From the NCBI GenBank assembly GCA_018433675.1, contig JAHDQS010000045.1, positions 70,356 to 134,355 of the forward strand: a DNA stretch of 64,000 nt, written 5' to 3'. Below the pieces are notes generated by a model that searched no databases, was not told where the DNA came from, and saw only the letters and a list, made by a program, of their open reading frames with translations. Below, piece after piece: positions 1 through 44,020 of the stretch (positions within the stretch are counted from its first letter, which is position 1; each line of letters opens with the position of its first letter). Made by a program: the position numbers and the translations under genes. The stretch comes from Clostridia bacterium (GTDB lineage Bacteria > Bacillota > Peptococcia > DRI-13 > SM3-B62).

Positions 1-1010
1 AGGCAAAGGGGCAGGTGCTGCTGCAGCTTCTGGCGGAAGCGGGAGAGGGTGGGCAGCTTGCTTACGCTTGCGGAGGATTGTTGAGGACCGCTCGTCTGGA
101 AAATCCCAAAATCAACGGGCAAATCATTACGGTGGAGCAATTATCCGGACAGCCGGTAAAGACTGTTGCCCGTCTTTTGCAAAGAGAGGCTGCAGGCTGC
201 AGGGATGGATGCCTGGAGGTATGCTACCGGGGAGAACCCTTGCGACGTTACCGGAAAAAGCTGCGGGAGATAACGGCAAAAGCCGAAAAACGAGCCTCGT
301 GGCTGAAGGAAAACGGGGTTTACCTCATCACCGGCGGTCTAGGGGGATTAGGTCTTTTACTGGCCGGGTATCTGGCCGGTAAGAGCAAGGTCAAACTTGC
401 CTTGTTGGGACGGAAAGAATTAAGTATTAAAACCGAAGAATCGCTCAGGCAATTGAGGAAGAAGGGTGCAGAAGTCCTGTATCGCCAAGTGGATGCAGGT
501 AATAAAGAGGATGTGGTCAAAGTCGTTGAAGATATCAGGAAGACTTTGGGGCCGCTTGCCGGGGTGTTCCACTGCGCCGGGGTGTTAAAGGATAAGGTGA
601 TTATTCAAAAGGGACAGGATGAAATAAAAGAGGTATTCAGACCGAAAGTACACGGTCTGTGGAATTTAGATGAAGCCGTCGGGTCGGAGAAGCTCGACTT
701 TTTTGTGGCCTTTTCTTCCCTTTCGGCTGTGCTGGGAAACCTGGGACAGGCGGATTACGCCGGTGCCAACGCTTTTATGGACAGCTTTGCCGAGCTGCGT
801 CGTCTGAGGGTCGAAAAGGGAGAACGATACGGCAGGACCATGACTGTGAATTGGCCCTTGTGGTCCGCAGGAGGGATGAGGGTCGATTATGAGACAGAGA
901 AAAAGTTTTACCATGATTTGGGATTGAGTCTCTTGCCGACGGTCTTTGGTCTTTGGGCCTTAGAAGCGGTAATGGCTCAAGAAGAAGCCCAGAGTGTGGT
1001 GCTTTACGGA
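1..1010 (+). other. PKS domain KR-a (structural subdomain cut by window edge)
   Basis: LLRTARLENP structural motif; Rossmann GVYLITGGLGGLG (~nt 311); HCAGVLKD; GQADYAGANAF. Confidence 0.85.
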
Positions 1011-4000
1011 CATGAGGAGAGAATTAAAAAGCACCTGGATGGATACAACGAAGGCGGGGAGGCTACAGCAGTCGGAGAGAACAGCGGGGCAGGGACAGAG
1101 GCGGAAATATGGCTGGGTGAAGACCGGAAGTCTGTCGATACTGATGAAGTGGCGATTATTGGGCTGGCGGGTCGTTATCCCCGCTCGGAGACCATCGAGG
1201 AATACTACCGCAACCTGCGGGAAGGGAAGGACTGTATCACCGGTTTTCCCCGGGAAAGATGGAAGAACTACCGGTTTTCCTACGATGTGGAGAAGTTCTA
1301 TCGATATGGCGGTTTTCTTAAGGGCATTGATTGCTTTGATCCCCTCTTTTTTAATATTTCTCCCCGTCAGGCGGAGAGGATGGATCCCCAGGCCAGGTTG
1401 TTCCTGGAAACGGCTTGGGAGGCTTGTGAGGATGCAGGATGGTGTCAGGACAGGCTTTCGCACCATTACCCCTCGTCAAGCGAGAAAAGCGTGGGAGTCT
1501 TTGTCGGGGTGTTTTGGAGTCACTATGAGTTGTTTGGGGCAGAAATTACCCAAAGGGGTATGCCGCTTTCCTTTGGGATAGGGTCGGCGGCCATAGCAAA
1601 CTGGGTGTCGTACTGCCTGAACCTGCACGGGCCGTCGATGGCTGTCGACAGCATGTGCTCATCTTCATTGACGGCCCTTCACTTGGCCTGTGAGAGTCTG
1701 AGAAAGGGCGAGTGCCATTATGCCATTGCCGGCGGCGTGAATCTTGTTACTCATCCTCATAAGTACATTGCCTTACAGGAAGCGGGGTTTTTGGCTTCGG
1801 ACGGAGTCAGCCGTAGCTTTGGGAAAGGCGGGGACGGGTACGTGCCGGGAGAGGGTGTGGGAGCAGTGCTGGTTACTACCCTGTCTAGGGCGGAGAGAGA
1901 AGGTTATCCCATTTACGGCGTTATCAAAGGCTCCGCCCTCAACCATGTCGGCAAGACAGCGGGAGTGACGGTGCCGGATCCTGTGGCTCAAGCAGAGGTG
2001 ATTGCGGATGCCATTAAACGGGCGGGAGTAGATCCGCGTACCATCGGGTATCTCGAGGCTCATGGTACAGGGACTTCCCTGGGGGATCCCATTGAGGTTC
2101 AGGGTTTACAGAGGGCTTTTGCGAAATGGACTGTGGATAAGCAGTTTTGTGCCATAGGCTCTTGTAAGTCGAATATCGGCCATCTGGAAGCGGCTGCGGG
2201 GATGGCCGGCTTAACAAAGGTCCTGTTGCAGTTTAAACACCGGGAAATATTCCCCTCCTTGCATGCTCGAGAGCTAAATCCGCACATCCCTTTCGCTGAG
2301 ACACCTTTTGTGGTGGTCCAAGAGTTGAGGAAGTGGGAGCCATATTCGGCAGGGACAGATAAGGGTAGCGTGGTTCATCCCCGGCGTGCCGGCATCAGTG
2401 CCTTTGGGGCCAACGGTAGCAACGCCCACCTTATACTTGAAGAATATATCAGGCCGGAGCAGGTCCGGCTTAAAGAAGGACCGACGGCGGCAAGGCTACT
2501 CGTACCCCTTTCTGCCGCCAGCAAAGGGCAGCTGTTGCGTTACGCAGAAAAGCTGTTGGCCTTTTTACTGAAAGAAGAAGGAGTTGGCGACGGAAACGGC
2601 AACCCCATTGCTACGGCTGTCAGGGCAACAGACAGGCTGCTTTTGGAGAAGCCGGAAACGGAAATACAGGAAGTTCTCGCGTTATTACTGGGTGTTGAAA
2701 AAAAGGAAATATCGCCGGAACAGGAGTTTAGCGAGTTGACCATAGCCTATCCTGAACTCCTCGCTTTACATCAGGCCTTGTGTACGAAATGGGGGATAGA
2801 GCTGGCGGAGAAAACCGTTCTTAGCGCCGGTTCTGTTAGCGAATTGGCCGCAGAAATAACGAGCAGGCATCGGGAGGAGCTGGCGGAAGATGCCCTCCGG
2901 CGGCTTGATCCGGTCTCCCTGGCCTATACCCTGCAGGTGGGACGGGAAGCCCTAGAGGAAAGGGTCATTTTTCTGGTCGGAAATATCAAGGAACTGGTAC
3001 GGGAATTGCAAGCCTTTATAGATAGAAAAGGAGAGGCCGGTAATGCCGGCAGTTGTTATGTGGGATCGGTCAAGGAAGATTTGACGGAAGCGGAGGAATC
3101 TGCAGTCGCCCCATGGTTCAATGAGGGTAAGGGAGAACGGTTGGCCGAATTGTGGGTACGGGGAAGGAAAATACCTTGGGAAAATCTCTATGGAGAGGTA
3201 AAGCCTCGGCGGATCAATCTGCCTACTTATCCCTTTGCCAGGGAGAACTATTGGCTGCCGGAAGCCGGAGTAGAAGCAGCCGGTAGAATGCCGTTTTTGA
3301 CGGCAGGTCATGCTCTTCATCCTCTGTTGCATCAGAACACCTCCGACCTTTACGAACAAAGATATACCACAAGCTTCAGCGGAGAGGAGTTTTTCCTGGC
3401 AGACCACCAGGTGGAGGGTAAGAAGATCCTGCCGGGAGCAGCCTGCCTGGAAATGGCCGGAGCAGCGGTAGTCCAGGCTACAGGGGTGCAAGGCGGGGTA
3501 GTGCGGCTGAAAGACGTTGTCTGGATCCGGCCCCTGGTGGTTGATGAAGTACCGCTACAGGTAGAGGTCGGGCTTTCCCTCGGTAAGGAGGGTGAGATTG
3601 CCTTTAGGATATATCAAGGGGAGACGATTTGCAGCCAGGGTACGGCTATTGTTTCAGGTGAGGCGGAGGGCCCAGCGACTGTGGATATTTCCAAGCTTTT
3701 GGAGCAATGCGGGGAAGGGGTTCTTGCGGCTGCAGAATGTTATGAGATCTTTAAAAGGATGGGGTTGGAATACGGGCCCGGACACCAAGGCCTGGAAGAG
3801 ATCCATCTCGGAAAGGAACAGGTGCTGGCCAGGTTGGTCCTGCCTTCTTTCCTGGAGGATACCCTGGATGAATATGTGTTACATCCCGGTATGCTGGATG
3901 CGGCTTTGCAGGCGTCACTGGGCTTGTTGACAGCCGAGGCGGGAGGCCGGGCCATTGACAAACCCTTACTGCCCTTTGCGTTGGAGGAAATAGAAATTAT

Positions 4001-7000
4001 AAAGGGCTGTACCTGCAGGATGTGGGCAGTGGTGCGACAAAGTAGCAAAAGCCTGGTTGGAAGCGGAAGCAGGAGATACGATCTGGAACTTTGCAGTGAT
4101 GACGGCAGCGTGTGTGCCCGCTTAAGGGGTTTAACGATGAGAGAAGGAACAAAGCGGGAGCTAGCGTTTTATGCCCCCATCTGGCAAGAAAGCAGCAACG
4201 CCGAGGAAGGCATAACGGCAACGGGATATGGGCAGCACATGGCAGTGGTGTGCGGGACAGACGAGCTATGGTGCGCGAGTGTGACAAAAAGTCTGCAAGA
4301 GCAAATAGCGGGTATAAAGTGTCTTGTCATACCTTCCCCCCAACAGGAGGTAGCCGCAAGATTCCAGGCTTGTGCTGCCATGGTGCTGGAGGAGGTCGCC
4401 GATATTTTTAAGGAAAAAGCCAGCGAGAGGGTTTTGTTGCAGGTCGTCGTTCCCAAGGAGGGAGAGGAACAGGTCTTGGCCGGGCTTTCCGGTCTCCTGA
4501 GGACGGCCAGGTTAGAAAACCCCCGGTTGGTGGGACAGGTGGTGGAAATGCCGGGGCAGATCGAGGGGACCGGCGTGGCAAAAATCTTGCGGGAGAACGC
4601 CGCAAGGCCTCATGAGGATTGGGTGAGCTATAGGGCTGAGAAACGGTTGGTGAAGTGTTGGCAGGAGGTCACGTCAACATACAAAAAGGAGAAGATGCCC
4701 TGGCAGAAAGGCGGTATCTATCTTTTAAGCGGTGGCGCCGGCGGTTTGGGAAGGATACTGGCAGAGGAAATCGTCAAGAAGGTCGGGGACGTGACCTTAA
4801 TCCTTTCCGGTCGTTCGCCGCTTTCGGAAAAGAAGGCGGCTCGGCTTAAAGAGCTAGGGAAAAAACAGAGCCGGGTTGTATATCGACAGGCAGATATCAC
4901 CGATAAAAAAGAGACTGTCAAGTTGATCCAAGACATTGTCAAAGAGTATGGCCCCCTTAACGGGATTATTCATTGTGCCGGGGTGCTGCGCGATTCCTTC
5001 ATTATCAACAAGACCGGGGAGGAACTGCGGGAGGTGTTGGCTCCGAAAGTGGCCGGACTGGTCAATCTGGATGAGGCCTCAAAGGATTTGCAGCTTGATT
5101 TCTTCCTGCTGTTTTCTTCCGGGGCGGCGGTTTTAGGAAATGTAGGTCAGGCCGATTATGCGGCGGCTAATGCCTTTATGGATATGTATGCCAGTCTTCG
5201 TCAGGATTTAGTGAACAAGGGGCAGCGCCGGGGTAGGACGTTGTCTTTGAACTGGCCTCTGTGGAAGGATGGCGGTATGCAGCCGGACGAGAGAACAGCG
5301 GGATTTATTGAGGAAAGCATGGGTATGGCGGTTCTGACAACAGAGGAAGGGATCCGTGCCTTGTATCGCTCTTTTGCCGGTGAAGAGAACCAGGTCATGG
5401 TGGCAGGAAGTGAGTTCAGACTGCCGGCCTTTCTCCGGGGAGAAAAAGAGGTAAAGGCGGAAAACACGGTCGGTTATGCCGGTGGGGAAGGAGCTGGGGA
5501 AAGCACTGAAGGCATTGTCCCGGAAAAAGTGGAGGGCTTTTTGAAGAAGCTTCTTTCCGTCGAACTGAAGCTGCCGCCGGAACGGATAGAGGCAGATGCC
5601 CTGTTGGAGAAATATGGAATAGATTCGGTGATGGTTTTACGATTGACCAACGAGTTGGAAAAAACCTTTGGATCCTTGTCAAAAACCCTCTTTTTTGAAT
5701 ACCGGAGTATTCGGGAATTAAGCGGATACTTTCTGGAATTCCACCGGGGACGGTTGCTTGAATTGATAAAAACAGGGCAAGATACTCCGGCGGCAACGAT
5801 GCGGAGAAACGGCGGGACTCTGAGGATTGCAGGTGGAAACAGTAAGGCTTCCGAGACATACGGACAGCAGAGGTTTTTAACGAAAGCAGACAGTGCGGGG
5901 CTGGGGAATAAAATCGCGCCGCAGAATAGGGATATTGCCGTGATTGGTCTGGCCGGGCGCTATCCCGGAGCAAGGAACATCAGGGAGTTTTGGCGGGTTT
6001 TACGGGAGGGTAGGGATTGTATTACCGAGATTCCGCGGGAACGTTGGAATCACAGTCAATACTATGACGAGGAAAAGGGCAGATTAGACAAAACCTATAG
6101 CAAGTGGGGCGGCTTTTTGGAAGGCGTGGACGAGTTCGATTCCCTCTTTTTCAACATCTCACCCCGGGAAGCGGAACTTATGGACCCACAGACCAGGTTG
6201 TTTCTGGAATGTGCCTATGCCGCCATAGAGGATGCCGGGTATACCCGCAGGTCCCTTGCTCAGCGTAGTATGGCGGGCTTAAAGGGCAATGTTGGCGTCT
6301 ATGTCGGGGTGATGTACGAGGACTATTTATTGTATGGGGCTCAGGGAGAAAAGAGGGAAAACGGAGGGGCCCTTTTCCCGAATACTTCTTCTATTGCCAA
6401 CCGTGTTTCATATTCAGGCGATTTTCACGGTCCCAGCATGGTGGTCAATACCATGTGTTCTTCCTCCTTGACTTCCCTTCATTTAGCGTGTCGGGGTTTG
6501 CAGCGGGGAGAATGTGAGGTTGCCCTGGCGGGAGGCGTCAACCTTTCCCTTCATCCCCTTAAATATCTCTCTCTGGCCCAGGCTAACTTCCTGTCCAGCA
6601 AGGGACGTTGTGAAAGCTTTGGGAAGGACGGGGACGGGTATGTGCCCGGGGAAGGGGTTGGAGCCGTACTGCTCAAACCCTTGGTTCAGGCAGAGGAGGA
6701 CGGTGATCATATTTACGGCGTTATCAAGGGAACCGTTCTTAACCATGGCGGGAAAACCAACGGCTATACCGTTCCTAACCCTCAGGCCCAGTCTGCGGTT
6801 ATCATCTCGGCCTTGGAGGAGGCCGGTATCAACCCGCGACTTCTCAGCTATCTGGAAGCACATGGTACAGGGACGATTCTGGGTGATCCCATTGAGATCA
6901 ATGCCTTGACCGCCGCTTTTCGTAAGTACACCCGGGATGTTGGTTTTTGCGCCATTGGCTCCGTCAAATCAAACATTGGTCACTGTGAGAGCGCGGCGGG

Positions 7001-18938: not shown

Positions 18939-18939
18939 G

Positions 18940-27900: not shown

Positions 27901-30522
27901 AAAGAGGGGTTTGTGGCGGGAGGATTCCCGGCTGAACAGGTTTTATGGATCACCGGCGGGACACGGGGACTTGGATATTTATGTGCCCGGCATTTTGTGG
28001 AGTGTTACGGTGTTAAACGCTTGGTTTTAACAGGACGGGAAGAGCTTCCGCCTCGTAGTGAGTGGGAAGGGTATCTGGAACAGGATGACGGGGTCGGCAA
28101 AAAGCTCAGGAATATTCTTTATCTGGAGGAACAAGGAGTACAGGTCTTGACTCCCCAGGTTTCGCTTACGGATGGCGAAGCTTTCAAAAAGTGTGTACAG
28201 GAAGTTACAAAGGCCCTGGGGCCAATCGGAGGAGTGATTCATTGCGCCGGCAGCAGCGATGCCAAGAATCCGGCTTTTATTCGCAAGCCGCTGCAAGGAC
28301 TAGCAGAGGTGCTGGCGCCGAAGGTCACAGGCATTAATGTTTTATATGAGGCCTTACGAGGGGAGCCCTTGCGGGTTTTCATGGTTTTTTCGTCCGTCGC
28401 CGGTCTTATTCCCACTTTGGGAGTGGGACAGAGCGATTACGCTATGGCCAATGCCTACCTGGATTACTTTGTCCAGGCCAAGGAGGGGGAGTTCCCGCTT
28501 TTGAGCATCCAATGGCCGAGTTGGAAAGAGACGGGGATGGGAGAGGTGAAAACCAGAGCCTTTCAGCAAACGGGGCTGTTGAGTCTGACTGATGAGGAAG
28601 GTTTAAGGCTGATGGATACCATTCTAGCGGCAAAGCTGGGTCCGGTGGTGATGCCGGCGGTGGTGCAAACGGAGTTATGGAAGCCCCAGCGTTTGATGAA
28701 GGCCAGGATCGAACAAGAGCCTGTGGCTGTGACCGGTCCGAGTTATTCGCTGACCGCAAGGGAGAAGAAAGGGGAGGAAGGAGATGCTTTCAGCCGGGTC
28801 CAGGCCTGGCTGGTCGGCTTGTTCTCCCGGGATCTGAAAATTCCTCCTGCCAAACTGGACGTGGATACACCCTTCCAGGAGTATGGGGTTGATTCGATTT
28901 TGCTGGCCCAATTGCTGCGTTCTGTTAATGAAGTGCTCCCGGAGGAAATAGATCCTTCCGTCTTTTATGAGTACTCTACGATCAGGCTTTTGACCTCGTG
29001 GCTGGTGGATAACCACGCCGAAAGCTTCCGGGATGCGGCTGCTTCTGCTGCCCGGGAGGAAGTGGACTCCGAAGTAAGCCGGGCACAACCTCAAGAGGCA
29101 GGTCAGGAGGCACGTTTGGAGTTGCAAGAGAGGGCTTCCGGGGAGGTGACGGTATCTGCGGGCATACCGGCAAGTGACTCTGAGATTGTGGTTGTCGGGA
29201 TGTCCTGCCGCTTTCCGGGAGCAGGTAACCTGGACGAATACTGGCAGCTGTTATCTCAGGGGAAAACAGCCATTCGTCCCGCACCGCCAGGTTGGCGGGA
29301 TTTCTCCAAGGAGTTCTGGGGAGGATTCATCGAAGACGCTACGTATTTTGATCCGGAATTCTTTTTGCTCCCGGAGGAAGACGCGGCGGAAATGGATCCT
29401 CAGGCCTTGTTGGTACTGGAGGAGAGCTTGAAAGCCTGGCATCATGCGGGTTATTCCCTTGCAGAGCTGAAAGGGAGACGTGTCGGGGTCTATTTAGGGG
29501 GCAGGGCACGTTACCAGCCAAGTGAAGCGGGACTGGATAAGACACGTAATCCCATTGTGGTTGTGGGGCAAAACTATCTGGCCGCAAATGTTTCACAATT
29601 CTTTGATCTGCGCGGGCCCAGCCTTGTTGTCGATACGGCGTGTTCTTCCGCTTTGGTAGGAATGCACATGGCACTACAGGCCTTGGTAAGCGGAGAGGTG
29701 GAAGCAGCCTTGGTGGGAGGGGTCAGTCTGTTGCACACGGACAAGACCCACCTGATATTTGAGCAGAGGCGGCTTCTTAATCCTGAGAATCGTTTTCATA
29801 TCTTTGACCGGCGTGCTGCCGGGATTGTGCTGGGGGAAGGGGTAGGCATGGTCGTTGTGAAAACAAAACAGCAAGCCTTGAAGGATAAGGACCGGATTTA
29901 TGCCCGGATCAAGGGGTTGGCCGTCAATAACGACGGGCGTACTGCGGGTCCGGCCACTCCCAATATCCAGGCGCAAAAGGAAGTCATGCTCGCAGCCCTG
30001 GAGAAAAGTAAAAAGAGGCCGGAGGAAATCGCTTATCTTGAGGCAAACGGTTCAGGCAGTGAGGTTACCGATCTGTTGGAATTAAAGGCCATCACCGGCG
30101 TCTATCGTGCGGCAAGCAAAGAACCACTTGCGTTAGGGTCTATTAAGCCAAACATCGGCCATCCTCTTTGTGCCGAGGGGATAGCGGGATTTATCAAGAC
30201 GGTTCTGATGCTGCATCACGGGCGGATGGTTCCCTTTTTATCCGGGCAGGAAGCGATGAAACACTTTGCCCTGGAAGAGACCCCGTTATATTTTTGCCGG
30301 GAGAGCAAAAAGTGGCAAGGTATACCGCGAGTGGCGGCACTCAACTGTTTTGCCGATGGGGGTACTAATGCCCATGTGATTCTACAGGCCCATGACGATT
30401 CGGAGAATAAACGTCCGCACAGGGAGCCCCTTGCACCTTTGACTTTAAAACGCCGTGATGTTCGTTCCACGGGGCAGGGTGGCAGGGAAAGCATCTGGAA
30501 GCGAAAAATTGTGGAGGGATGA
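18940..30522 (+). CDS. trans-AT type I polyketide synthase subunit 2: KR-ACP / KS-DH-KR-ACP0-ACP / KS-KR-ACP / KS0
   Basis: ATG at 18940, 1 nt after the subunit-1 stop (TGAgATG), preceded by AAGGGGGG. The track start at 18853 lies inside the upstream gene. The N-terminus LYKPCWRE matches the KR lead-in of the other modules. Confidence 0.95.
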   Translation: MKRQQETAPLAAVSEKTRVMLYKPCWREGRIKGQGNTAGADFRRLVVFCEPQGLQAEDIAGMIEGTNCLILQSREKEIEKRYQEYALELLREIQSIMGKKDESRVLIQVMISSQGEQRLFGGLSGLLKTAQAESSRLWVQLIMTDDWEKKGVIEMLRENGLSPQDAQVRYRDGKRQVTGWEEVTGAELAESIPWQDKGVYLITGGAGGLGLLFASEIARRVKNPVIVLAGRSSLDKVEKRLAKKFAGLGARIVYRQGDVSQKRETVDLVTGIREEFGSLNGIIHAAGVTRDSLIINKTADQLREVFAAKVEGLLNLETACRGMELDFLVLFSSVAASLGNPGQADYAAANAFLDCYAEYRREPETDEQKQFARIISYNWPLWQEGGMHVSPEAERSMRQKGFVPLGTVGGIKSFYQGWAYGGSLFMVLEGDGLRLKEVMSARAYPRLSDRKGPVSVKPERLLQETLGRLKELFGEITGLSREQIDAQEILESYGIDSVMISKLNSRLESVFREVSKTLFFEGRTLEAVARRLCEDYPEECMAWAHLQGGEEEPGDKELFGDDALEWGEDEEFPVLRPLKAPQMRAEGFEPIAVIGLSGKYPQAENLTEYWENLQAGKDCITEIPSERWSLEGFYLPDQQKAAATGKSYCKWGGFIDGFADFDPLFFNISPREALNMDPQERLFIEHCWQVLEDAGYTRQQLMEEYGGRVGVFAGITKTGFALYGPALWRQGEQAFPRTSFSSLANRVSYLFDLRGPSMPVDTMCSSSSTAIHEACRCLQRGECEIAIAGGVNLYLHPANYNELCVQQMLSPDGRSRAFGAGANGFVPGEGVGCVLLKSLSQAVEDGDNIYAVIKGTAVNHGGKTNGYTVPNPQAQSEVIRAALDNAGVKAREVSYLEAHGTGTRLGDPIEITGAKQAFESDTQERGYCSLGSVKSNIGHLEAAAGIAGLTKIVLQMRYKKLVPSLHAKVLNPNINFAKTPFVVQQEATDWNSKEYPRIAGLSSFGAGGANAHIVLEEYLPAARKHSVPAIDDERPAVIVLSARNKEDLKKRAEGLLSRLKAREYSEADLAALAYTLQVGREAMEERLGMTVVSLQELEEKLQGCLEGEEDKSDLYWGRVEQNKEKLAALATDEVVQENVSRWLENGEYGRLLEMWVRGLNLNWNRLYQGGKPKRLSLPGYPFARERYWLPEIKEGEEKGELVHSSLHPLLHRNTSDLKEQRYTSIFTGKEFFLRDHMVQGRHILPGVAYLEMARAAAELAAGDMQGENSCLKLKNVVWAQPAIVEEGEGLRLHLGLYPTAEGELAYEVYGASVIYSQGTIEIEGEKTRPKMDVAAAKAACSKGMLTGQQCYEIFSQMGIDYGPGHRAIEEVYLGEGVAVAKLVLPSAVKETSDGFVLHPTMMDGALQASLGLVLTAGASAPLVPFALEELEVYAGCVPRMWVLLRRSGSLDIDCCDEEGNVCVRLKGYFSRELKGEGTKTEETMLLEPCWREEDAASSVALSPAAGSENYGQHLVILCEAVKVKPKDVEGLWPGVRCLMLSSRKKDPAVRYGEYVLRVLQEIQGILRQKPKGRVLLQVVIPGHGESRLLAGLAGLLVTAGLENPQLCGQLIELEDWQGLERILRENREKPTAGRIRYREGTRYVAALAEVESFQKMPQSPWREGGRYLITGGAGGLGLLFAAEIARTTRNVTLILTGRSLLDTARENKIKELREAGAQVIYRQLDVIDQKAVENLVHAVVQEFGGLDGIIHSAGVIRDAFILNQSEAESLEVLSPKVNGLVNLDEATQDLKLDFFLLFSSQAAVLGNPGQAVYAAANAFLDSYVEYRNELVAVQERHGATLSVNWALWQEGGMGIEDAAEKIIRENTGMIPLRTSSAFLALYQGMEQGKARLMVMEGSRPLMERWLFGRQESGEYHGRENRRITEDLLVKAAALLQVGVEDLEEDTAWDEHGFDQVTLTKLVGELNREYGLQLSSAVFSSFPTLRSLAGYLSGQSAEEDGEQPGAAVSVPAHATADAAVLPAGELAEDAVEYLKKRLSAVIKLPPHRIEENAPLEKYGIDSVMVMQLTNELEKTFGSLPKTLFFEYQNLRELTGYFLEAHRVRLLDALGMGVERGEEDKPAAVVPWREETPRLVYERPRFATGWGRGRREDTSLSSDIAIIGLAGRYPGARNLREFWLNLSEGKDCITEIPAERWDHSRYFDEDRNKPGKTYSKWGGFLEGVDEFDPLFFNISPREAEIMEPQERLFLECVYETLEDAGYTRGSLASYRGRDLEGNIGVYVGVMYEEYQLYAAQQQLLGKPVTVSGNPSSVANRVSYFCNFHGPSMAIDTMCSSSITAIHLACRSLQNGECRLAIAGGVNVSIHPNKYLFLGQSNFVSSKGLCEAFGAGGDGYVPGEGVGAVLLKPLNEAVKDGDHIYGIVKGTALNHGGKTNGYSVPNPNAQAAVIGQALKGSGVNPRAVSYLEAHGTGTILGDPIEIAGLSKAFREHTKDTQFCAIGSVKSNIGHSESAAGIAGLTKVLLQMKHRQLVPSLHTDTLNPNIDFDTTPFVVQQKRAEWKPIVAEVGGGKKEYPLIAGVSSFGAGGSNAHLVVQEYIPEGERALPGFLSRKRPVLIVLSAKNEERLRERVLSLISIFQEEGLDEDDLVNVAYTLQVGREAMEERLALLVESVDEMVGKLQGFLSQKKDESGIYRGHIRQSKETIAVFAADEDMEKTLAAWIEKGKYGKLANLWVQGLDIDWRRLYTTGLPQRVSLPPYPFERERYWIPEKEALEEALDAGVSGTIRKTCFLQKQWELCPVVAGKSFTGKVAILATKETLSLAERLREYFSPGVVFEEEQLGLENGVFQEEAADWNGFIDLTGCGKEEQGSLTWLSRLQRLIENGKDRGLVVLGVTRGLEAFLQTEINLAGASRAGLYRMLQSEYGRLKSRHVELDPDSAIAESQLAEQIAAEFFAAGDEAEVCYRDGKRYQAVLREIPAERQEEKGEEKEGFVAGGFPAEQVLWITGGTRGLGYLCARHFVECYGVKRLVLTGREELPPRSEWEGYLEQDDGVGKKLRNILYLEEQGVQVLTPQVSLTDGEAFKKCVQEVTKALGPIGGVIHCAGSSDAKNPAFIRKPLQGLAEVLAPKVTGINVLYEALRGEPLRVFMVFSSVAGLIPTLGVGQSDYAMANAYLDYFVQAKEGEFPLLSIQWPSWKETGMGEVKTRAFQQTGLLSLTDEEGLRLMDTILAAKLGPVVMPAVVQTELWKPQRLMKARIEQEPVAVTGPSYSLTAREKKGEEGDAFSRVQAWLVGLFSRDLKIPPAKLDVDTPFQEYGVDSILLAQLLRSVNEVLPEEIDPSVFYEYSTIRLLTSWLVDNHAESFRDAAASAAREEVDSEVSRAQPQEAGQEARLELQERASGEVTVSAGIPASDSEIVVVGMSCRFPGAGNLDEYWQLLSQGKTAIRPAPPGWRDFSKEFWGGFIEDATYFDPEFFLLPEEDAAEMDPQALLVLEESLKAWHHAGYSLAELKGRRVGVYLGGRARYQPSEAGLDKTRNPIVVVGQNYLAANVSQFFDLRGPSLVVDTACSSALVGMHMALQALVSGEVEAALVGGVSLLHTDKTHLIFEQRRLLNPENRFHIFDRRAAGIVLGEGVGMVVVKTKQQALKDKDRIYARIKGLAVNNDGRTAGPATPNIQAQKEVMLAALEKSKKRPEEIAYLEANGSGSEVTDLLELKAITGVYRAASKEPLALGSIKPNIGHPLCAEGIAGFIKTVLMLHHGRMVPFLSGQEAMKHFALEETPLYFCRESKKWQGIPRVAALNCFADGGTNAHVILQAHDDSENKRPHREPLAPLTLKRRDVRSTGQGGRESIWKRKIVEG
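19246..20235 (+). other. PKS domain KR4 (completes the module split across subunits 1 and 2)
   Basis: LLKTAQAESS; KGVYLITGGAGGLG; HAAGVTRD; GQADYAAANAF. Confidence 0.9.
20320..20550 (+). other. PKS domain ACP4
   Basis: LESYGIDSVMISKL (Ser codon 20428-20430). Confidence 0.9.
20710..21993 (+). other. PKS domain KS5 (elongating)
   Basis: DTMCSSSS (Cys codon 21229-21231); EAHGTGTRLGDP; SNIGHLE. Confidence 0.9.
22555..23360 (+). other. PKS domain DH5
   Basis: LRDHMVQGRHILPG (His codon 22645-22647); YGPGHRA; LHPTMMDGALQ. Confidence 0.9.
23652..24632 (+). other. PKS domain KR5
   Basis: LLVTAGLENP; GGRYLITGGAGGLG; HSAGVIRD; GQAVYAAANAF. Confidence 0.9.
24706..24920 (+). other. PKS degenerate carrier domain (ACP0; phosphopantetheinyl Ser replaced by Gln)
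   Basis: Carrier-protein-like segment LLQVGVEDLEEDTAWDEHGFDQVTLTKLVGEL...LRSLAGYL. Gln codon 24802-24804 sits where the other ACPs have the DS Ser. Confidence 0.7.
25024..25240 (+). other. PKS domain ACP5
   Basis: LEKYGIDSVMVMQL (Ser codon 25120-25122). Confidence 0.9.
25411..26724 (+). other. PKS domain KS6 (elongating)
   Basis: DTMCSSSI (Cys codon 25933-25935); EAHGTGTILGDP; SNIGHSE. Confidence 0.9.
27300..28665 (+). other. PKS domain KR6 (no DH in this module)
   Basis: VLWITGGTRGLG (~nt 27940); GQSDYAMANAY. Reads HCAGSSDAKNP where the other six KRs have the xRD/LKD motif. Confidence 0.85.
28795..29015 (+). other. PKS domain ACP6
   Basis: FQEYGVDSILLAQL (Ser codon 28894-28896). Confidence 0.9.
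29185..30393 (+). other. PKS domain KS7 = KS0 (non-elongating)
   Basis: DTACSSAL (Cys codon 29641-29643) and PNIGHPL are retained. EAHGTGT is replaced by EANGSGS (Asn codon 30046-30048). No flanking LPTYPF region; the protein ends ~40 aa later. Confidence 0.85.
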
Positions 30523-30523
30523 A

Positions 30524-31330
30524 ATGGAGGAGAAATATCTTATCGGCATTGATAACCCAATCGTGAAGAACCATCAGGTCTACGGAAACTGTGTGCTGCC
30601 TGGTTTGGCCTATATCGATATGGTGTACCAGCTGTTTCGTGAGCAGGGCTATGACCATACCCGTCTGGAGCTGCGCAATCTTTCGATTTTCAATCCCTTG
30701 ATAGCGAGTAAGGACAAGGAGGTGACCCTCCATGTGCGCTGTGAAGAGGTTGCAAGCGGGAGATGGCGGATAGTCATGGAGGGAGGGGAGGACAACAAGC
30801 GGTATGCCACTGCCGAAATGCTGCAAACGGCACCGGTGGTCTTCGCAAAGGAGCCTGTGGCCCTTGATTGGGCAAAACAAGAGAACAAGAAGGCAAAAGA
30901 GGTTCTTGATTTGGAGGCGGCCTATGAATTCTGCCGTGAGCTTGAACTGCTGCATACAGGTTTCATGAAGGCGAAGGGTAAGGTTTACGGTACCGCTACT
31001 GAAATATGGGTCGATATTTCCCCGGGAGATGAATCCCGGGCCGTTAAGGAAGCTTTCATGTTTCATCCGGTCTTGCTCGACGGTGCCGCTATCGGCACGT
31101 GGGGGCTTCTTGCTACCCGTTTAGGGAAAAAACGGCAGCTAAGCCTGCCGCTTTTCTACGAGTCTTTTAAAGCAACTGGTTTGCTGCAGGAAAGTTGCTT
31201 TGTCAGGATTAAGTCTTCTTCCCTGCGGGAGAAAAAGGAACTCTCTTATCTGAGCATGGAGTTTTTCGATACAACGGGAAGAAAGGTTGCCGAACTGTTA
31301 AATTTCGCCGGTAAGGCGGTCAAAGAGCCC
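30524..31330 (+). other. PKS domain DH6 (divergent DH-like, directly after KS0)
   Basis: VKNHQVYGNCVLPG (His codon 30572-30574); FHPVLLDGAAIG (Asp kept, Gln absent); no YGP motif. Confidence 0.75.
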
Positions 31331-33895
31331 GGGCAGCTTGGACAGGTTGAGACCGAAAGGCCGCGAGCCGCCGAAGTAGAGACATTTTTACGGCAGTTGT
31401 TGGCAGAGAGGATGAGGATCCCGGCGGAGAAAATCAATACACAGGTGGGGTACTACGAGATGGGGCTGGATTCTACCGGCCTGTTAGGGCTGGTGGAGGA
31501 ACTGACCGCAAAAATTGGGGTTGACTTATCTCCTACCCTGTTGTTTGAGTATACGACCATAGCCGAACTGGCGGCCTATTTGAGTGAACATCATTCTGTA
31601 GGTTTTGCCTCCGGAGCCTCTGCCGGTTTGGAAGATGTCGATGAATCATCTGGGCCAAGAGAGAAAGGGGATATTGCCATTATTGGGATGGCGGGGCGTT
31701 ATCCTCAGGCCGGGAACCTTTGGGAGTATTGGGAGAACTTATGCGGGGGGAAGGAGTGTATTACGGAAATTCCCTCCTCCCGTTGGGAAAGGCAAGAGAT
31801 GGAAGGGCTTGAATCCCCGACCGGGAAGAGGATTTCCCAATGGGGCGGCTTTATCGATGATGTGGATTGTTTTGATGCGGAGTTTTTCCGGATTTCGCCG
31901 CGTCATGCGGAGGTCTTCGATCCCCAGGAACGGCTCTTTTTGGAGACCTGTTGGGAAGCCGTAGAGGATGCCGGTTATACCCCGGCCACATTGACCCCGC
32001 TCCGGAAGAACCGGAAGGGTCGGAAGGTAGGGGTTTTTGCCGGTGTAATGCACAGTGATTATCTGTTGTTGAGTGCCGAGGCGGCAGCTAAAGGCAGTTT
32101 TTTTCCCCTGCCCTTAAGCAGCGCCTCTATTTCCAACCGTACTTCCTACTTTTTCGACTTTTGCGGGCCGAGTATTACCCTGGATACGATGTGTTCTTCG
32201 TCGTTGACTGCCGTACACTTGGCAGCGGGTAGTATCAGGTGCGGGGAGTGTGAAGTGGCTTTGGCGGGAGGTGTCAATTTATCGCTCCATCCGTATAAAT
32301 ATATGTCTTACGGTTTGTTGGACATGTACAGTGATAAACCCCATTGTCATGCCTTCGGCAGTGAGGGAGACGGCTATATTTCAGCGGAGGGAGTGGGGGT
32401 GGTTGTCCTCAAACCCCTGGCAAAGGCCGTTGAGGACGGGGACAACATTTACGCGGTGATTAAGGGTAGTGCAATCAATCACGGGGGGACAACCAGCGGC
32501 TTTACGGTGCCAAATCCGGCCGCCCAGGCTGAACTGATTATCTCTTGTCTGGAGGAGGCGGGAATTAATCCCCGGACAATCAGTTACGTGGAGGCTGCCG
32601 CCGTAGGCTCCGCCCTGGGAGACCCGATTGAGGTGGCGGCCCTAACAAAAGCTTTTCGTCGGTACACTGCGGATAGGCAGTATTGTGCCATAGGTTCCGT
32701 TAAGTCCAATATCGGGCACGCGGAATCGGCTGCGGGGATCTCCCAGCTGATGAAGGCCGTCTTGCAAATACGGTACGGAGAACTGCTGCCTAGTATCAAC
32801 GCCGAGCCCTTAAACCCGGAAATAGATTTTACAAAGACCCCTTTTTATCTCCAAAAGGAAAAGAGGAGTTGGGAACGCCCGGAGGTAAATATCGACGGAG
32901 AGAAGCGAGTGTATCCCAGGCGTGGGGCTGTAAATTCTTTTGGGGCGGGGGGTTCTAATGTTCATATGATTATTGAGGAGCATCTTTTGTCAGACGAACC
33001 GTTGGCTGAAAAAGAGCTTTCCGCTGGGGCGGCAGGGGCTCAGGTTGTCATACTTTCAGCGAAAAACCCTTCGCGTTTGCAGGCGGTGGCACAGGGGTTG
33101 CTGGAGTTTCTGGAGTCAAGGAAAGGACAGGGCGGAATATCCCTGCAGGATTTAGCTTATACCTTTCAGGTGGGAAGGGTTGCCTGGGAATCACGCCTGG
33201 CCATGGTGGTCGCAAACCAAGAGGAGCTGGTTCAGGGGTTGAAGGTCTTTCTGGCGGGAGAAAAAGGAGCCAAGAACGTATTTGTTTCCGTTAAAGAAAA
33301 CGAAAATGCGGTAGGAGGAAAGAACACGGGGAAAAGCGGATCGGCAAAGAAACCTTCGGCAGCAGACGACCTTATGGGAGTTGCGGCGTACTGGGCGCAG
33401 GGGGGAGAAGTTGATTGGAAGACGCTGCACAAAGGGGCACGAGTCAAAAGGATTTCTTTGCCCACATATCCTTTTGAGCGTAAGCGTTATTGGGTTTCCC
33501 GCCAGAATGATGAGGAGGCGGTGGAAGGTTCACGGGAAGGTGGCTTGCAAGAATATCTTGTTCGGTTCTTGCAGCAGGAGCTTCGCCTCGCCGAGGGAGG
33601 AGTCGATTTAGACAGGAACCTGCAGGAGTATGGGGTGGATTCGATTATTACCATGAAGCTTTTGCGCAGTCTGGAAAAGGAGTATCGCTTTAAAGCCCCG
33701 CTGCGATCGGTGTTGGAACACCCGACGATTTCCTCGTTGGCTGAACACCTGATGTCATTAAAGACGGAAGCGGAGAGGGCAGTAACGAAAAAGACTGGAA
33801 TTGAAGAGGAAAACGGATATTTGGAAAAATTCAAGCAGGGGCTGTTGACCCTTGAGGAGATAGATGAATTGATTGAAAAAGGAGAGATAGTATGA
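30524..33895 (+). CDS. trans-AT type I polyketide synthase subunit 3: DH-ACP / KS0-ACP plus a short C-terminal helical tail
   Basis: ATG at 30524, 1 nt after the subunit-2 stop (GGAGGGATGAaATG). The track start at 30455 lies inside the upstream gene. Confidence 0.95.
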   Translation: MEEKYLIGIDNPIVKNHQVYGNCVLPGLAYIDMVYQLFREQGYDHTRLELRNLSIFNPLIASKDKEVTLHVRCEEVASGRWRIVMEGGEDNKRYATAEMLQTAPVVFAKEPVALDWAKQENKKAKEVLDLEAAYEFCRELELLHTGFMKAKGKVYGTATEIWVDISPGDESRAVKEAFMFHPVLLDGAAIGTWGLLATRLGKKRQLSLPLFYESFKATGLLQESCFVRIKSSSLREKKELSYLSMEFFDTTGRKVAELLNFAGKAVKEPGQLGQVETERPRAAEVETFLRQLLAERMRIPAEKINTQVGYYEMGLDSTGLLGLVEELTAKIGVDLSPTLLFEYTTIAELAAYLSEHHSVGFASGASAGLEDVDESSGPREKGDIAIIGMAGRYPQAGNLWEYWENLCGGKECITEIPSSRWERQEMEGLESPTGKRISQWGGFIDDVDCFDAEFFRISPRHAEVFDPQERLFLETCWEAVEDAGYTPATLTPLRKNRKGRKVGVFAGVMHSDYLLLSAEAAAKGSFFPLPLSSASISNRTSYFFDFCGPSITLDTMCSSSLTAVHLAAGSIRCGECEVALAGGVNLSLHPYKYMSYGLLDMYSDKPHCHAFGSEGDGYISAEGVGVVVLKPLAKAVEDGDNIYAVIKGSAINHGGTTSGFTVPNPAAQAELIISCLEEAGINPRTISYVEAAAVGSALGDPIEVAALTKAFRRYTADRQYCAIGSVKSNIGHAESAAGISQLMKAVLQIRYGELLPSINAEPLNPEIDFTKTPFYLQKEKRSWERPEVNIDGEKRVYPRRGAVNSFGAGGSNVHMIIEEHLLSDEPLAEKELSAGAAGAQVVILSAKNPSRLQAVAQGLLEFLESRKGQGGISLQDLAYTFQVGRVAWESRLAMVVANQEELVQGLKVFLAGEKGAKNVFVSVKENENAVGGKNTGKSGSAKKPSAADDLMGVAAYWAQGGEVDWKTLHKGARVKRISLPTYPFERKRYWVSRQNDEEAVEGSREGGLQEYLVRFLQQELRLAEGGVDLDRNLQEYGVDSIITMKLLRSLEKEYRFKAPLRSVLEHPTISSLAEHLMSLKTEAERAVTKKTGIEEENGYLEKFKQGLLTLEEIDELIEKGEIV
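31375..31595 (+). other. PKS domain ACP7
   Basis: YYEMGLDSTGLLGL (Ser codon 31472-31474). Confidence 0.85.
31673..32983 (+). other. PKS domain KS8 = KS0 (non-elongating)
   Basis: DTMCSSSL (Cys codon 32192-32194) and SNIGHAE are retained. EAHGTGT is replaced by EAAAVGS (Ala codon 32597-32599). Confidence 0.85.
33545..33765 (+). other. PKS domain ACP8 (terminal)
   Basis: LQEYGVDSIITMKL (Ser codon 33641-33643). Followed by a 43-aa charged tail, ...GLLTLEEIDELIEKGEIV. Confidence 0.85.
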
Positions 33896-35154
33896 CAGGG
33901 GAAAAATCAAATCCGTTGAGTTTTTTGCTTCGCTCTTTCCAATACAGGAACTATCGCCTGTATTTTGGGGGACAGAGTGTTTCACAGATAGGGACCTGGA
34001 TTCAGACTATTGCGCTAAGCTGGCTGGTTTACAGTTTGACCGGCTCTGCTTTGTATTTGGGAATCGTGGGTTTTATCGGGCAGATCCCAATTTTGGTGTT
34101 ATCGTTTTTAACCGGGGTTTTGATGGACAGGTGGAATCGCCATCGCACCTTTATCGCCACCCAGGTTTTGACGATGATACTGGCTTTCGTGCTGTCCGCA
34201 TTAGTGTTGACCGGAAGGATAGAGGTTTGGCACATTATTGTTTTAAGCTTGTTAAACGGCTTGGTGGCTTCTTTTGAATTAACATCCAGTCAAACGTTTT
34301 TGTACCATATTATCGAGAAGAAGGAGGACATTGGTAATGCCATTGCCCTCAACTCTATGCTGGTCAACCTGGCACGTATGCTGGGACCTTCTATAGCAGG
34401 TATTCTGATTGCCAGTATAGGAGAGGGACTGTGCTTCTTTGTCAACGGTGCGAGCTATCTTCCCGTTATTGCGGCCTTGCTTCTCATGAGGGTTAAGCCT
34501 CAGCCGCCTGCCGCTTCTAAACGAAATATTTTAAAGGGGCTGCAGGAAGGGATTAACTACGCCTGTGGCTCTACTCCCATCATCTCCATCATACTGCTTC
34601 AGTCTCTGATTAGCCTGATTGGGATGCCCTTTCAGGTGCTGATGCCGGTTTTTGTTCAGGAGATTTTAAATGGCGGACCTCACGCCCTCGGTTTCATCAT
34701 GGGATGTTCCGGCGTAGGGGCTATTGTCGCCACCCTTTATCTGGCCACACGGCGGGATCCTTTCGGTCTGGTTAAATTAGTACCCGTGGCCGCCGCTATT
34801 CTGGGTGCGGGTTTGATTGCTTCTTCTTTGTCGCGTCTTACGGTGTTGTCGATGTTTTTTGCCTTGTTTACCGGCTTTGGCGCTATTCTTTTAATGGCGG
34901 TGAATAATACGGTTTTGCAGACAATAGTCGCTGACGATAAAAGGGCTCGGGTCATGAGCTTATATACTATTTCTTTTTTAGGTATTTATCCCTTTGGAAA
35001 TTTGTTGGCAGGGGGTTTGGCCAATTTAATCGGTGTACCGAACGAGTTCATGTTGAGCGGAATTTGCTGTTTGGTAGGGTCGCTGGTTTTTGCCAGCAGG
35101 TTAGGGGCTATCAAAGCCGGTATCAAGCGGCCCTCCCAGCAGGTATCTTCTTGA
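33892..35154 (+). CDS. MFS transporter (MFS_3 / EntS-like exporter family)
   Basis: Start overlaps the PKS stop (ATGA at 33892-33895); RBS AAGGAGAG. Multi-TM protein, FRNYRLYFGGQSVSQIGTW...MDRWNRH, typical of the enterobactin-exporter-like MFS family. Confidence 0.85.
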   Translation: MTGEKSNPLSFLLRSFQYRNYRLYFGGQSVSQIGTWIQTIALSWLVYSLTGSALYLGIVGFIGQIPILVLSFLTGVLMDRWNRHRTFIATQVLTMILAFVLSALVLTGRIEVWHIIVLSLLNGLVASFELTSSQTFLYHIIEKKEDIGNAIALNSMLVNLARMLGPSIAGILIASIGEGLCFFVNGASYLPVIAALLLMRVKPQPPAASKRNILKGLQEGINYACGSTPIISIILLQSLISLIGMPFQVLMPVFVQEILNGGPHALGFIMGCSGVGAIVATLYLATRRDPFGLVKLVPVAAAILGAGLIASSLSRLTVLSMFFALFTGFGAILLMAVNNTVLQTIVADDKRARVMSLYTISFLGIYPFGNLLAGGLANLIGVPNEFMLSGICCLVGSLVFASRLGAIKAGIKRPSQQVSS

Positions 35155-37265: not shown

Positions 37266-38257
37266 AGAAAGCGAAGAAAAAGGAATTGGCCGAGTTGCGT
37301 GAAGAAGATATCAAGAGGCTGCCGGAGCTGATTGAGTTGGCCACCAAAACTTTGCAGGCCAAGGGATGCCGGGTCTATGATGCCGCTGATACCGCCCAGG
37401 CCCGGGGAATTATCGGAGAACTGCTGGTAGGACAAAAGAGAGTCGTGCGTTCTTTTAGCCAGACCCTGTACGAGATAGGCTTCGATGGACTGATGAAAGA
37501 AAAGGGAATCGAAGTAGAAAAGACGAGTACCGCTGAAATATTGTGGTCCGAAGAAGGAAGACATCCGGACGGGCTGCCTCCTTTCCCTGTCGTTGACAGA
37601 GAAAGCGCGTCTTTGTCCGAATCGGAACTGCCGTTCGCTGAAAGGGTCAGGGAGCGAGTGAAGGAGAGTGAGTACGGTATTACAGGTATTAACAGTATTG
37701 CGGCAGAAAGAGGTACTTTGGTTCTGGCAGAAAACGAAGGAAACGGCAGAACAGTCTCGAATCTTCCTTACCACCACGTGGTAGTAGCCGGTGTGGATAA
37801 GATAACAGCTTCCCTGACAGGGGCTGTGGATGTTGTTTGCTGTGCTTCCGAGCACGGTCAAAACCGTAAAGTTCCGGTTTATATTTCTTTGATTTCAGGG
37901 CCGAGCCGCACGGGGGATATAGAGTTTCGTCTTACTTACGGGATGCACGGTCCGAAAGAGGTACATGTCATCTTGCTGGATAACGGCAGGCAAGAGTTGT
38001 GCCGGCAAGGATACGGCTATTTGCTGAAATGCATTGATTGTGGGTCTTGTTGTGAGCAGTGCCGGGAAATGGCTCTTGCTAACGGATGGTCCGGCATTAC
38101 CCTGACTATGAAAGGGCTAGCCCTGGCCTTGATTGGCGGGAGAATTGCTCCTCCCGTTTTGCAAAATAGACTGGGGAATTTTTCCTGCCAGGTGGGAATC
38201 ACGCCGAAAATGGCTGCAGAGGCATTGAAAGGGCTAAACACAGTAAAATCCTTTTAG
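37262..38257 (+). CDS. LUD-domain protein (LutC-like) with C-terminal Cys cluster
   Basis: GTGA start/stop overlap with the upstream gene. ITGINSIAAERGTLVLAENEGNGR parallels ITGANAIAAETGSILLTENEGNIR in the upstream protein. CIDCGSCCEQC near the C-terminus. Confidence 0.75.
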   Translation: MKKAKKKELAELREEDIKRLPELIELATKTLQAKGCRVYDAADTAQARGIIGELLVGQKRVVRSFSQTLYEIGFDGLMKEKGIEVEKTSTAEILWSEEGRHPDGLPPFPVVDRESASLSESELPFAERVRERVKESEYGITGINSIAAERGTLVLAENEGNGRTVSNLPYHHVVVAGVDKITASLTGAVDVVCCASEHGQNRKVPVYISLISGPSRTGDIEFRLTYGMHGPKEVHVILLDNGRQELCRQGYGYLLKCIDCGSCCEQCREMALANGWSGITLTMKGLALALIGGRIAPPVLQNRLGNFSCQVGITPKMAAEALKGLNTVKSF

Positions 38258-43917: not shown

Positions 43918-43924
43918 TAAACAT

Positions 43925-44001: not shown

Positions 44002-44020
44002 TACTAAAATACCGTTTTTT

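Follow-up and report, generated by a model that had tools for sequence, protein, structure and literature searches.

The 64,000-nucleotide stretch of contig JAHDQS010000045.1 analyzed here (hereafter, the window) comes from an uncultured spore-forming Clostridia bacterium, the type of host that a preliminary description made from the window had recognized. The window contains the downstream ~35 kb (probably ~38 kb), or ~55%, of a ~66 kb single-strand operon of antibiotic type, the start of which lies ~28 kb upstream in the same genome. The encoded system is a trans-acyltransferase (trans-AT, i.e. AT-less) modular polyketide synthase (PKS) that forms a hybrid with a nonribosomal peptide synthetase (NRPS). 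Combining domain content, ketosynthase (KS) relationships and comparisons with related genomes, we suggest, with a probability of roughly 0.7 for the explanation as a whole, that the chain starts on a free acyl carrier protein (ACP), is built into a polyene by the subunits encoded in the window, is handed over to the NRPS-containing subunit Pks1 encoded at the other end of the operon, and that the product is exported by a major facilitator superfamily (MFS) transporter.

From the window alone, the system had been read as a PKS line. This holds for the three subunits encoded there, which are themselves free of NRPS domains, and not for the cluster, in which a condensation-adenylation-peptidyl carrier protein module for glycine, C-A(Gly)-PCP, is encoded upstream. 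Because the window holds only part of the cluster, the NRPS module, a trans-acting enoyl reductase (trans-ER), a doubtful dehydration and a probable internal hand-over have to be added to the earlier picture; taken by itself, the window would have led to a wrongly predicted end of the molecule.

The AT-less subunits encoded in the window

Domains were mapped with Pfam and a self-trained hidden Markov model (HMM) map. For comparison of the KSs, 843 KS domains were collected as a reference set from the 357 proteins that searches had returned, each labelled by the domains that precede it. The megasynthase consists of five subunits with 13 KSs, numbered KS1 to KS13 across the subunits, and has no integrated AT. 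Pks1 and Pks2 are encoded upstream, and the remaining three subunits are encoded in the window as follows:

1 to 18938, plus strand: ORF A, trans-AT PKS subunit, the 3' 6311 codons of the 6831-aa protein Pks3; runs off the left window edge
18940 to 30522, plus strand: ORF B (Pks4), 3860-aa PKS subunit
30524 to 33895, plus strand: ORF C (Pks5), 1123-aa subunit with dehydratase (DH), ACP, non-elongating KS (KS0) and ACP

The junctions TGA-g-ATG (18936-18942), TGA-a-ATG (30520-30526) and ATGA (33892-33895) are exactly where they had been placed. The range of 1-35154 previously given for the PKS stands up to 33895; the fourth ORF, at 33892-35154, encodes the MFS transporter. Within the window, ORF A has the order KR-KS-DH-KR-ACP-KS-DH-KR-MT-ACP-KS-DH-KR-ACP-KS-DH (KR, ketoreductase; MT, methyltransferase), ORF B the order KR-ACP-KS-DH-KR-ACP*-ACP-KS-KR-ACP-KS, where ACP* lacks the carrier serine, and ORF C the order DH-ACP-KS-ACP. 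In total, ORFs A-C contain eight KSs, six DHs, seven KRs, one C-methyltransferase (cMT) and nine ACP-like domains (eight functional, one serine-less), which reproduces the earlier count. No embedded AT that the earlier reading might have missed turned up in ORFs A-C, either with Pfam Acyl_transf_1 or when the AT domains of the cluster itself served as queries at a cut-off as loose as E<=10. Similarly, an embedded ER was found neither with Pfam nor with an ER seed from a reference protein, and no Pfam match to thioesterase (TE), C or A domains was obtained in these ORFs. The resulting modules are:

315 to 866, plus strand: KR of the module KS5/DH-ACP-KR, cut by the window edge
1143 to 5729, plus strand: module KS6-DH-KR-ACP with an elongating KS, a B-type-like KR (LRD) and intact DH motifs
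5928 to 11501, plus strand: module KS7-DH-KR-cMT-ACP, the sole C-methylating module of the window
11682 to 15986, plus strand: module KS8-DH-KR-ACP
16164 to 20529, plus strand: split module KS9-DH/KR-ACP, crossing the ORF A/B junction
18054 to 18908, plus strand: degenerate DH at the end of ORF A, with FSP for YGP, E for D in DxxxQ, and LPL for LPF
20704 to 25224, plus strand: module KS10-DH-KR-(ACP-like)-ACP
24721 to 24909, plus strand: serine-less ACP-like domain with GFDQ instead of GxDS
25405 to 29001, plus strand: module KS11-KR-ACP, the KR without the LDD-type aspartate
29179 to 31579, plus strand: KS12(0)/DH-ACP, second half of a dehydrating bimodule, crossing the ORF B/C junction
31667 to 33748, plus strand: KS13(0)-ACP, non-elongating transfer module
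33818 to 33892, plus strand: C-terminal tail of ORF C, ...LEKFKQGLLTLEEIDELIEKGEIV, a probable docking element

The series of five KS-DH-KR(-cMT)-ACP modules followed by KS-KR-ACP, KS0 and DH-ACP is therefore real, as is the tandem of a serine-less ACP-like domain and a functional ACP. The supposed ACP-less KR-KS junction, on the other hand, was an effect of the window edge: full-length Pks3 starts 1.56 kb upstream and begins with DH-ACP-KR. Split modules are present, with protein junctions of the types KS/DH, DH/KR and KS0/DH. The motif LP(T/G/P)YPF follows all six elongating KSs of the window, as had been noted, and also the KS0 of ORF C. In the whole cluster, a RhiE-like KS-MAT linker plus this motif is found behind 11 of the 13 KSs; the two protein-terminal ones, KS5 and KS12, have neither the motif nor a linker match behind them.

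The catalytic residues are largely preserved. Ten of the 13 KSs keep the cysteine, the HGTGT histidine and the second histidine. In KS3 (end of Pks1), KS12 (end of ORF B) and KS13 (ORF C), the first histidine is replaced by N, N and A, respectively, the HGTGT region of the last two reading EANGSG and EAAAVG. Because loss of this histidine is an established criterion in trans-AT PKSs, we regard these three as non-elongating KS0s. The double KS0 seen previously at the end of the window subunits is thus genuine, and it probably marks a hand-over from PKS to NRPS instead of a terminus. Four of the five canonical DHs (Pks3_1626, Pks3_3110, Pks3_5007 and Pks4_1207) have intact HxxxGxxxxP, YGP, DxxxQ and LPF motifs. 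The fifth, at 18054-18908, is altered in the last three of these and may be inactive. The subunit-initial DHs at the N-termini of Pks3 and ORF C belong to a divergent subtype in which the His and Asp are retained. KRs of DH-containing modules carry an xRD/xKD motif (B-type-like) that is missing from the two KRs of the KS-KR-ACP modules. Apart from the serine-less ACP-like domains, the catalytic motifs of the KRs, MTs and ACPs of the cluster are intact.

A second serine-less ACP-like domain is present in Pks1 (residues 2268-2331), and both members of this GFDQ/GFDP pair sit directly behind KRs. In the reference set, GFDP, GFDQ and GFDH domains behind KRs are also found in trans-AT PKSs of Paenibacillus, Brevibacillus and Streptomyces.

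The upstream part of the operon and the cluster borders

ORF C is present as an identical database protein on an 81 kb Logan contig and on a 134 kb NCBI contig, from which the upstream part was walked. The full 66 kb is contained in Logan SRR13787005 contig 1063 as well as in the 134 kb contig. The upstream sequence of the same contig (L004, numbered in its own coordinates) reaches 30.6 kb before window position 1 and is identical to the window across a 3 kb overlap. For comparison we used a sister genome, the GTDB representative metagenome-assembled genome (MAG) 'Clostridia bacterium SV3-B7.1', and Peptococcaceae MAGs.

Behind the housekeeping genes lgt and gerM, which form the upstream flank, lies loaP, a divergent NusG paralogue (L004 1540-2061, minus strand, ~28.5 kb upstream of window position 1) that scores 202.6 bits with the LoaP model NF033641 (antiterm_LoaP), for which the cut-off is 125. 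Between loaP and the first plus-strand gene, a perfect TTGACA-17-TATAAT site (L004 2200-2228) matches the sigma-70 consensus at 12 of 12 positions, and this arrangement of loaP and promoter-like site is repeated in the sister genome. A scan of the window and the upstream locus with Rfam returned five tRNAs only and no leader element.

After loaP, the genes encode, in this order, a metallophosphoesterase, an Sfp-type phosphopantetheinyl transferase, a protein with acyl hydrolase-like, AT and ER domains (AH-AT-ER), a hydrolase, an adenylate-forming (ANL) enzyme, an MT, Pks1, a free ACP and Pks2. Two of these are referred to below by position:

L004 3961 to 7215: 1084-aa AH-AT-ER protein, 23-27 kb upstream of the window
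L004 8044 to 9228: 394-aa ANL (adenylate-forming) enzyme

The AH-AT-ER protein is the separate AT-bearing protein that the earlier assignment to the trans-AT class had called for. Its first AT-like domain (GASLG) resembles proofreading hydrolases and its second (GHSLG and GAFH) is of the malonyl type; the protein scores 487 bits with the FabD model TIGR00128 and 647 bits as a PfaD-type ER. The hydrolase is a 271-aa alpha/beta hydrolase with an intact GHSMG motif, the MT a 254-aa UbiE/BioC-like protein, and the free ACP between Pks1 and Pks2 has 86 aa. Pks1 (4552 aa) has the order C-A-PCP-KS-KR-ACP*-MT-ACP-KS-MT-ACP-KS and Pks2 (1703 aa) the order KS-KR-ACP-KS. The A domain of Pks1 has the code DILQLGMIWK at the hand-read Stachelhaus positions, which we take to be a glycine code. 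The upstream search advocated in the preliminary description thus yielded the free-standing AT, the trans-ER and a discrete hydrolase; a beta-branching cassette and a TE were not among the genes of the cluster. Specifically, no gene for hydroxymethylglutaryl-CoA synthase (HMGS) or enoyl-CoA hydratase (ECH) and no TE domain occurs between the housekeeping flanks, and no TE, reductase or terminal C domain is present anywhere in the cluster.

On the downstream side, ORF C is followed by three genes of interest:

33892 to 35154, plus strand: MFS_3 (EntS-like) transporter, probable exporter; gene start overlapping with the stop codon of ORF C
35184 to 37265, plus strand: LutB-LutA-like fusion (LUD, 4Fe-4S and two CCG domains)
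37262 to 38257, plus strand: LutC-like LUD-domain protein

The transporter is 70% identical to the product of the gene at the same position of the Peptococcaceae cluster, where orthologues of the LutBA fusion and the LutC-like protein (56% and 49% identity) occupy the same place as here; the further Peptococcaceae flank differs (mraZ, rsmH, a penicillin-binding protein gene and murE). GC content is 0.52-0.54 in the PKS genes, 0.526 in the LutBA/LutC-like genes, 0.465-0.475 in the small accessory genes and the MFS gene, and 0.45-0.46 in both chromosomal flanks (window 38258-64000 and L004 1-2061). Lactate-utilization-type Fe-S oxidoreductases are unusual in PKS clusters. Given that the LutBA/LutC-like genes are kept beside the MFS gene in Peptococcaceae and have a PKS-like GC content, they are probable members of the cluster, which would then extend to ~38257 instead of 35154. 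Beyond the LutC-like gene follow an amidase gene, racE, rph, rdgB, a tRNA array, tig, clpP, clpX, lonB and lon.

Proposed subunit order and hand-over from PKS to NRPS

The C-terminal tail of ORF C is conserved in 22 of the 24 stand-alone DH-ACP-KS-ACP proteins of the reference set, with the consensus LE(K/Q)F(K/R)QG.L.LEEI..L(I/L)..G (in its reduced form, LE.F..G.L.LEEI..L...G). In all three other loci compared, which come from unrelated genomes (Trinickia sp., Methylomusa anaerophila and a metagenome contig from JGI), the gene after that for the DH-ACP-KS-ACP protein encodes a protein that starts with C-A. These uncharacterized systems from Methylomusa anaerophila, Trinickia sp. and metagenomes share with ours the four domains, the KS0, the tail and a partner that begins with C-A-PCP-KS behind the N-terminal helix M..E(L/I)L.AY..GK(I/L)(S/T); they differ in that the partner gene lies directly behind there and ~20 kb upstream of the window here. 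Pks1 carries the same helix, shares 48.7% identity with the partner from Methylomusa over 1600 aa, and is the sole C-domain protein of the cluster. Based on the tail, the C-A partners in three of three loci, and the helix and only C domain of Pks1, we suggest that ORF C is the subunit for hand-over from PKS to NRPS. In this model, KS13(0)-ACP of ORF C would pass the chain, via the tail, to the C-A(Gly)-PCP module of Pks1, which would amidate the polyenoyl chain with glycine and then add two C-methylated ketide units. The order Pks2 > ORF A > ORF B > ORF C > Pks1, which is not the gene order, appears moderately probable to us on these sequence features.

Several observations weigh against this order. 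Pks1 is encoded first, ~20 kb upstream of the window, and not behind ORF C; the proposed order draws on homology of short terminal segments and on analogy with three loci; with Pks1 last, the line would end in a KS0 with neither ACP nor TE in cis; and the terminal KS0 of Pks1 groups with hand-over KS0s, and the only free ACP is encoded right behind it, as expected if the subunits act in gene order. The two connections are mutually exclusive because both together would close the line into a loop.

Alternatively, the line could follow the genes: an unknown acyl donor and glycine would be joined by Pks1 through a starter C domain, KS3(0) would pass the chain to the free ACP, and Pks2 and ORFs A, B and C would follow. 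ORF C's KS0-ACP would in this case be the true terminus, from which the discrete alpha/beta hydrolase would release a free polyenoic acid. All genes indeed lie in this order in one tightly packed operon, the free ACP gene sits between the final KS0 of Pks1 and the first KS of Pks2 in both close genomes, the more distant neighbors of KS4 often follow KS-ACP modules, and a hydrolase with an intact GHSMG motif is on hand. However, the tail of ORF C and the helix of Pks1, found on consecutive subunits in the three other loci, would be left partnerless, the C domain would have no evident acyl donor, and in Peptococcaceae the KS0 and the free ACP are three genes apart, the ACP standing with the ANL enzyme and the MT directly before Pks2. 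We therefore regard the gene-order connection as rather unlikely, and the ending by hydrolysis that belongs to it as similarly doubtful.

Two further loci bear on subunits of this type. In Trinickia sp. (L013 1-9597), the DH-ACP-KS-ACP gene is the first of its cluster and stands beside oppositely oriented type III secretion genes, which could reflect either another non-collinear case or a loading role of DH-ACP-KS-ACP subunits. On ENA contig_31726 (L014 10001-20045), a DH-ACP-KS-ACP-KS0 protein ends in ...LPTYPFKKQRCW, like the C-terminus of Pks1, and is followed by genes for an ECH, a discrete KS, an AT and a free 82-aa ACP. A C-terminal KS0 on the last megasynthase gene is hence not unique to the cluster described here. 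The context of a second protein ending in KS0-LPTYPF..RCW, with beta-branching-type genes behind it, gave no clue to termination.

The predicted chain

The chain made by the modules of the window was predicted from the KSs, which were compared with their nearest neighbors in the reference set. The nearest non-sibling neighbors of KS8 follow DH-KR-MT-ACP in 11 of 12 cases, among them Bacillus subtilis PksM; those of KS7, KS9 and KS11 follow DH-containing modules, those of KS5 and KS12 follow KR-ACP, and those of KS13 follow DH-ACP in 12 of 12 cases. The context of the neighbors agrees with the KS's own upstream module for KS5 to KS9 and KS11 to KS13, KS10 being exceptional, and among the 843 KS domains no embedded ER was found upstream of a nearest neighbor. 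These contexts, none of them of the ER type, support enoyl and alpha-methyl-enoyl intermediates. We suggest that the modules of the window would give a polyenoyl chain that is for the most part conjugated, has six to seven C=C bonds and bears a single alpha-methyl branch, KS12(0)/DH-ACP completing a dehydrating bimodule.

The conjugated, methyl-branched polyene of the preliminary description thereby finds support in the KS contexts, with the reservation that a trans-ER is present and one DH is doubtful. Given the PfaD-type trans-ER in the cluster, full conjugation is not guaranteed. In addition, the 12 nearest non-sibling KSs of KS10 follow KR-only modules seven to eight times and DH-containing modules twice, and its closest relatives (68-74% identity) are mostly found behind KR-only modules. 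Because the DH of KS9-DH/KR-ACP is degenerate and KS10 resembles KSs behind KR-only modules, the position made there may keep its hydroxyl group, with a divided chromophore as the consequence.

Acting together, trans-ER and degenerate DH could instead break the conjugation and lead to a partly saturated and/or hydroxylated chain with shorter diene-to-tetraene units and no long polyene. The fusion of the PfaD-type ER to the ATs, the three altered motifs of the DH at 18054-18908 and the KR-only contexts of the KS10 neighbors (7-8 of 12, as opposed to 2 of 12 with a DH) are in line with such a product. Against it, no nearest neighbor of KS6 to KS11 lies behind an embedded ER, KS7, KS9 and KS11 are similar to KSs located behind DH-containing modules, and a methionine precedes the catalytic cysteine in six KSs of the cluster and in none of the 17 KSs with ER context. 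As the methionine also occurs after KR-only modules, it speaks weakly, and only against saturated substrates. We hold the interrupted chain to be a less likely alternative. Met or Ala before the catalytic cysteine was also considered as a marker for enoyl-accepting KSs and was dropped, Met being enriched after DH modules and also present after KR-only ones.

Proposed initiation and export

The probable starting point of the chain is the free 86-aa ACP, the gene for which directly precedes that for Pks2 in all three genomes compared (this genome, the sister genome and Peptococcaceae). In Peptococcaceae, the genes for hydrolase, ANL enzyme, MT and ACP stand together immediately before the Pks2 orthologue, and the end of the PKS gene ahead of them overlaps with the hydrolase gene. 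In aurantinin biosynthesis, the chain begins with the methylation of malonyl-ACP by Art28, and the ester is finally cleaved off by Art9; active homologues are reported from Clostridium, Pelosinus and other Firmicutes (PMC8302727). By analogy, the BioC/UbiE-like MT and the alpha/beta hydrolase might support a methyl-ester initiation of the Art28/Art9 type, a proposal that we put forward with reserve. The MT scores 54.5 bits with UbiE (PF01209), and the hydrolase's best relatives in the PDB, weak and generic matches, include plant-type methyl esterases (SABP2, PNAE). The nearest solved relatives of the ANL enzyme are MenE and oxalate and malonate ligases, which activate dicarboxylates (o-succinylbenzoate, oxalate and malonate). 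A sequence search of the PDB with the MT returned assorted MTs only. Three findings do not favor the proposal: the MT reaches 69.8 bits with the BioC model TIGR02072 (cut-off 185), the hydrolase 32.6 bits with BioH (cut-off 207), and the ANL enzyme lacks the C-terminal subdomain, having 394 aa vs. 482 aa in its Peptococcaceae orthologue. Since the sister genome has the short ANL form as well, this form is not a recent accident. At the other end of the pathway, the MFS protein would export the product.

Integrity and relation to known systems

The cluster is a genuine, intact orphan under purifying selection. All reading frames are intact, the longest with 6831 codons; over its first 4165 codons, Pks3 is 87% identical to its counterpart in the sister genome with a dN/dS of 0.18, and the gene order there is the same. 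The consensus sigma-70 promoter-like site in front of the first gene likewise speaks for a functional cluster. In the Peptococcaceae MAG cluster, all components are 49-70% identical and collinear wherever contigs allow. Against this background, a decaying or silent cluster that makes no product is very improbable: the ANL enzyme without its C-terminal subdomain, the lack of a TE and the one degenerate DH would fit it, whereas the open frames, the low dN/dS, the preservation of the short ANL in the sister genome and the intact catalytic motifs of ten KSs and of the KRs, MTs and ACPs argue to the contrary.

As the preliminary description had supposed, the line could not be placed on a characterized one: no collinear match to a characterized cluster was found among the database protein matches, and a literature search on the run and assembly accessions and on trans-AT polyketides of Peptococcaceae or anaerobes returned nothing relevant. 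On protein matches and literature, the view that the product is undescribed stands unrefuted.

One of the closest known systems is that for bacillaene (pks/bae of Bacillus subtilis and B. velezensis), likewise a Firmicute NRPS/trans-AT PKS. The two have in common split modules, KS0s, a free-standing AT that carries a PfaD-type ER in the same protein, and a C-A(Gly)-PCP module forming an amide beside a conjugated polyene; KS8 shares 67% identity with a KS of PksM, which is also behind DH-KR-MT-ACP. The bacillaene line differs in having an HMGS beta-branching cassette, a second (Ala) module, a P450 and a TE, all missing here, and in subunit sizes and domain order; at whole-protein identities of ~40% over ~38% of the query, the two are not orthologous. 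The difficidin and macrolactin clusters (dfn, mln; B. velezensis) similarly have a LoaP paralogue beside a long single-strand trans-AT polyene operon, a likeness of gene content, and a B. velezensis protein is the best named relative of ORF C (51% over 79%). Those systems are pure PKS lines that end in a TE and yield macrolactones; the present one has an NRPS module, no TE and another domain order. The aurantinin cluster (art; PMC8302727) shares a stand-alone UbiE/BioC-like MT, an alpha/beta hydrolase and a loading-type ACP in a Firmicute trans-AT setting. Here, in contrast, the similarity to BioC and BioH is below threshold, an extra ANL enzyme is present and the ACP is free-standing.

These shared traits (polyene modules, the Gly module of bacillaene, the LoaP of difficidin and macrolactin) and best named matches that include Bacillus PksM and B. 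velezensis proteins could be taken to indicate an orthologue of one of the characterized Firmicute trans-AT clusters for bacillaene, difficidin, macrolactin or aurantinin. Such an assignment has next to no probability: identities do not exceed 51% with partial protein coverage, subunit sizes and domain orders are different, the HMGS cassette, second amino-acid module and TE are missing here, and close homologues of the subunits are limited, among the database matches, to the sister genome (85-90%) and Peptococcaceae MAGs (49-70%). A known Bacillus cluster was rejected on identity and architecture.

The practical results of this analysis are defined cluster borders and the location of the missing AT/ER and of a regulator; the current understanding of trans-AT enzymes is not overturned. 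Strict anaerobes have so far yielded few known polyketides, and to our knowledge none has been characterized from the host lineage. An intact 66 kb line under purifying selection is a reasonable target for genome mining, and the predicted chromophoric polyene amide would be easy to detect. The pair of tail and helix could mark subunit order in other non-collinear trans-AT clusters. A more far-reaching view is that the two Clostridia genomes and the Peptococcaceae MAGs represent a small cluster family making an undescribed polyene-glycine-ketide by features not described together. We consider this view, taken in full, unlikely. If it were true, initiation would involve a cryptic methyl ester (or another route) on a free ACP together with an ANL enzyme truncated at its C-terminus, a docking-tailed KS0-ACP subunit would hand the chain to an NRPS subunit encoded first in the operon, release would proceed without any TE, and a LutABC-like Fe-S oxidoreductase pair would act in tailoring or precursor supply, a role new for polyketide pathways.

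Other features of the window

Two features lie in the chromosomal flank downstream of the cluster. The tRNA array between rdgB and tig (43841-44284) comprises five genes, Arg-TCT, His-GTG, Gln-CTG, Lys-CTT and Leu-TAG. At 59173-61452, on the minus strand, a 759-aa protein is encoded, the C-terminal 190 residues of which resemble glucosaminidase/FlgJ-type cell-wall hydrolases.

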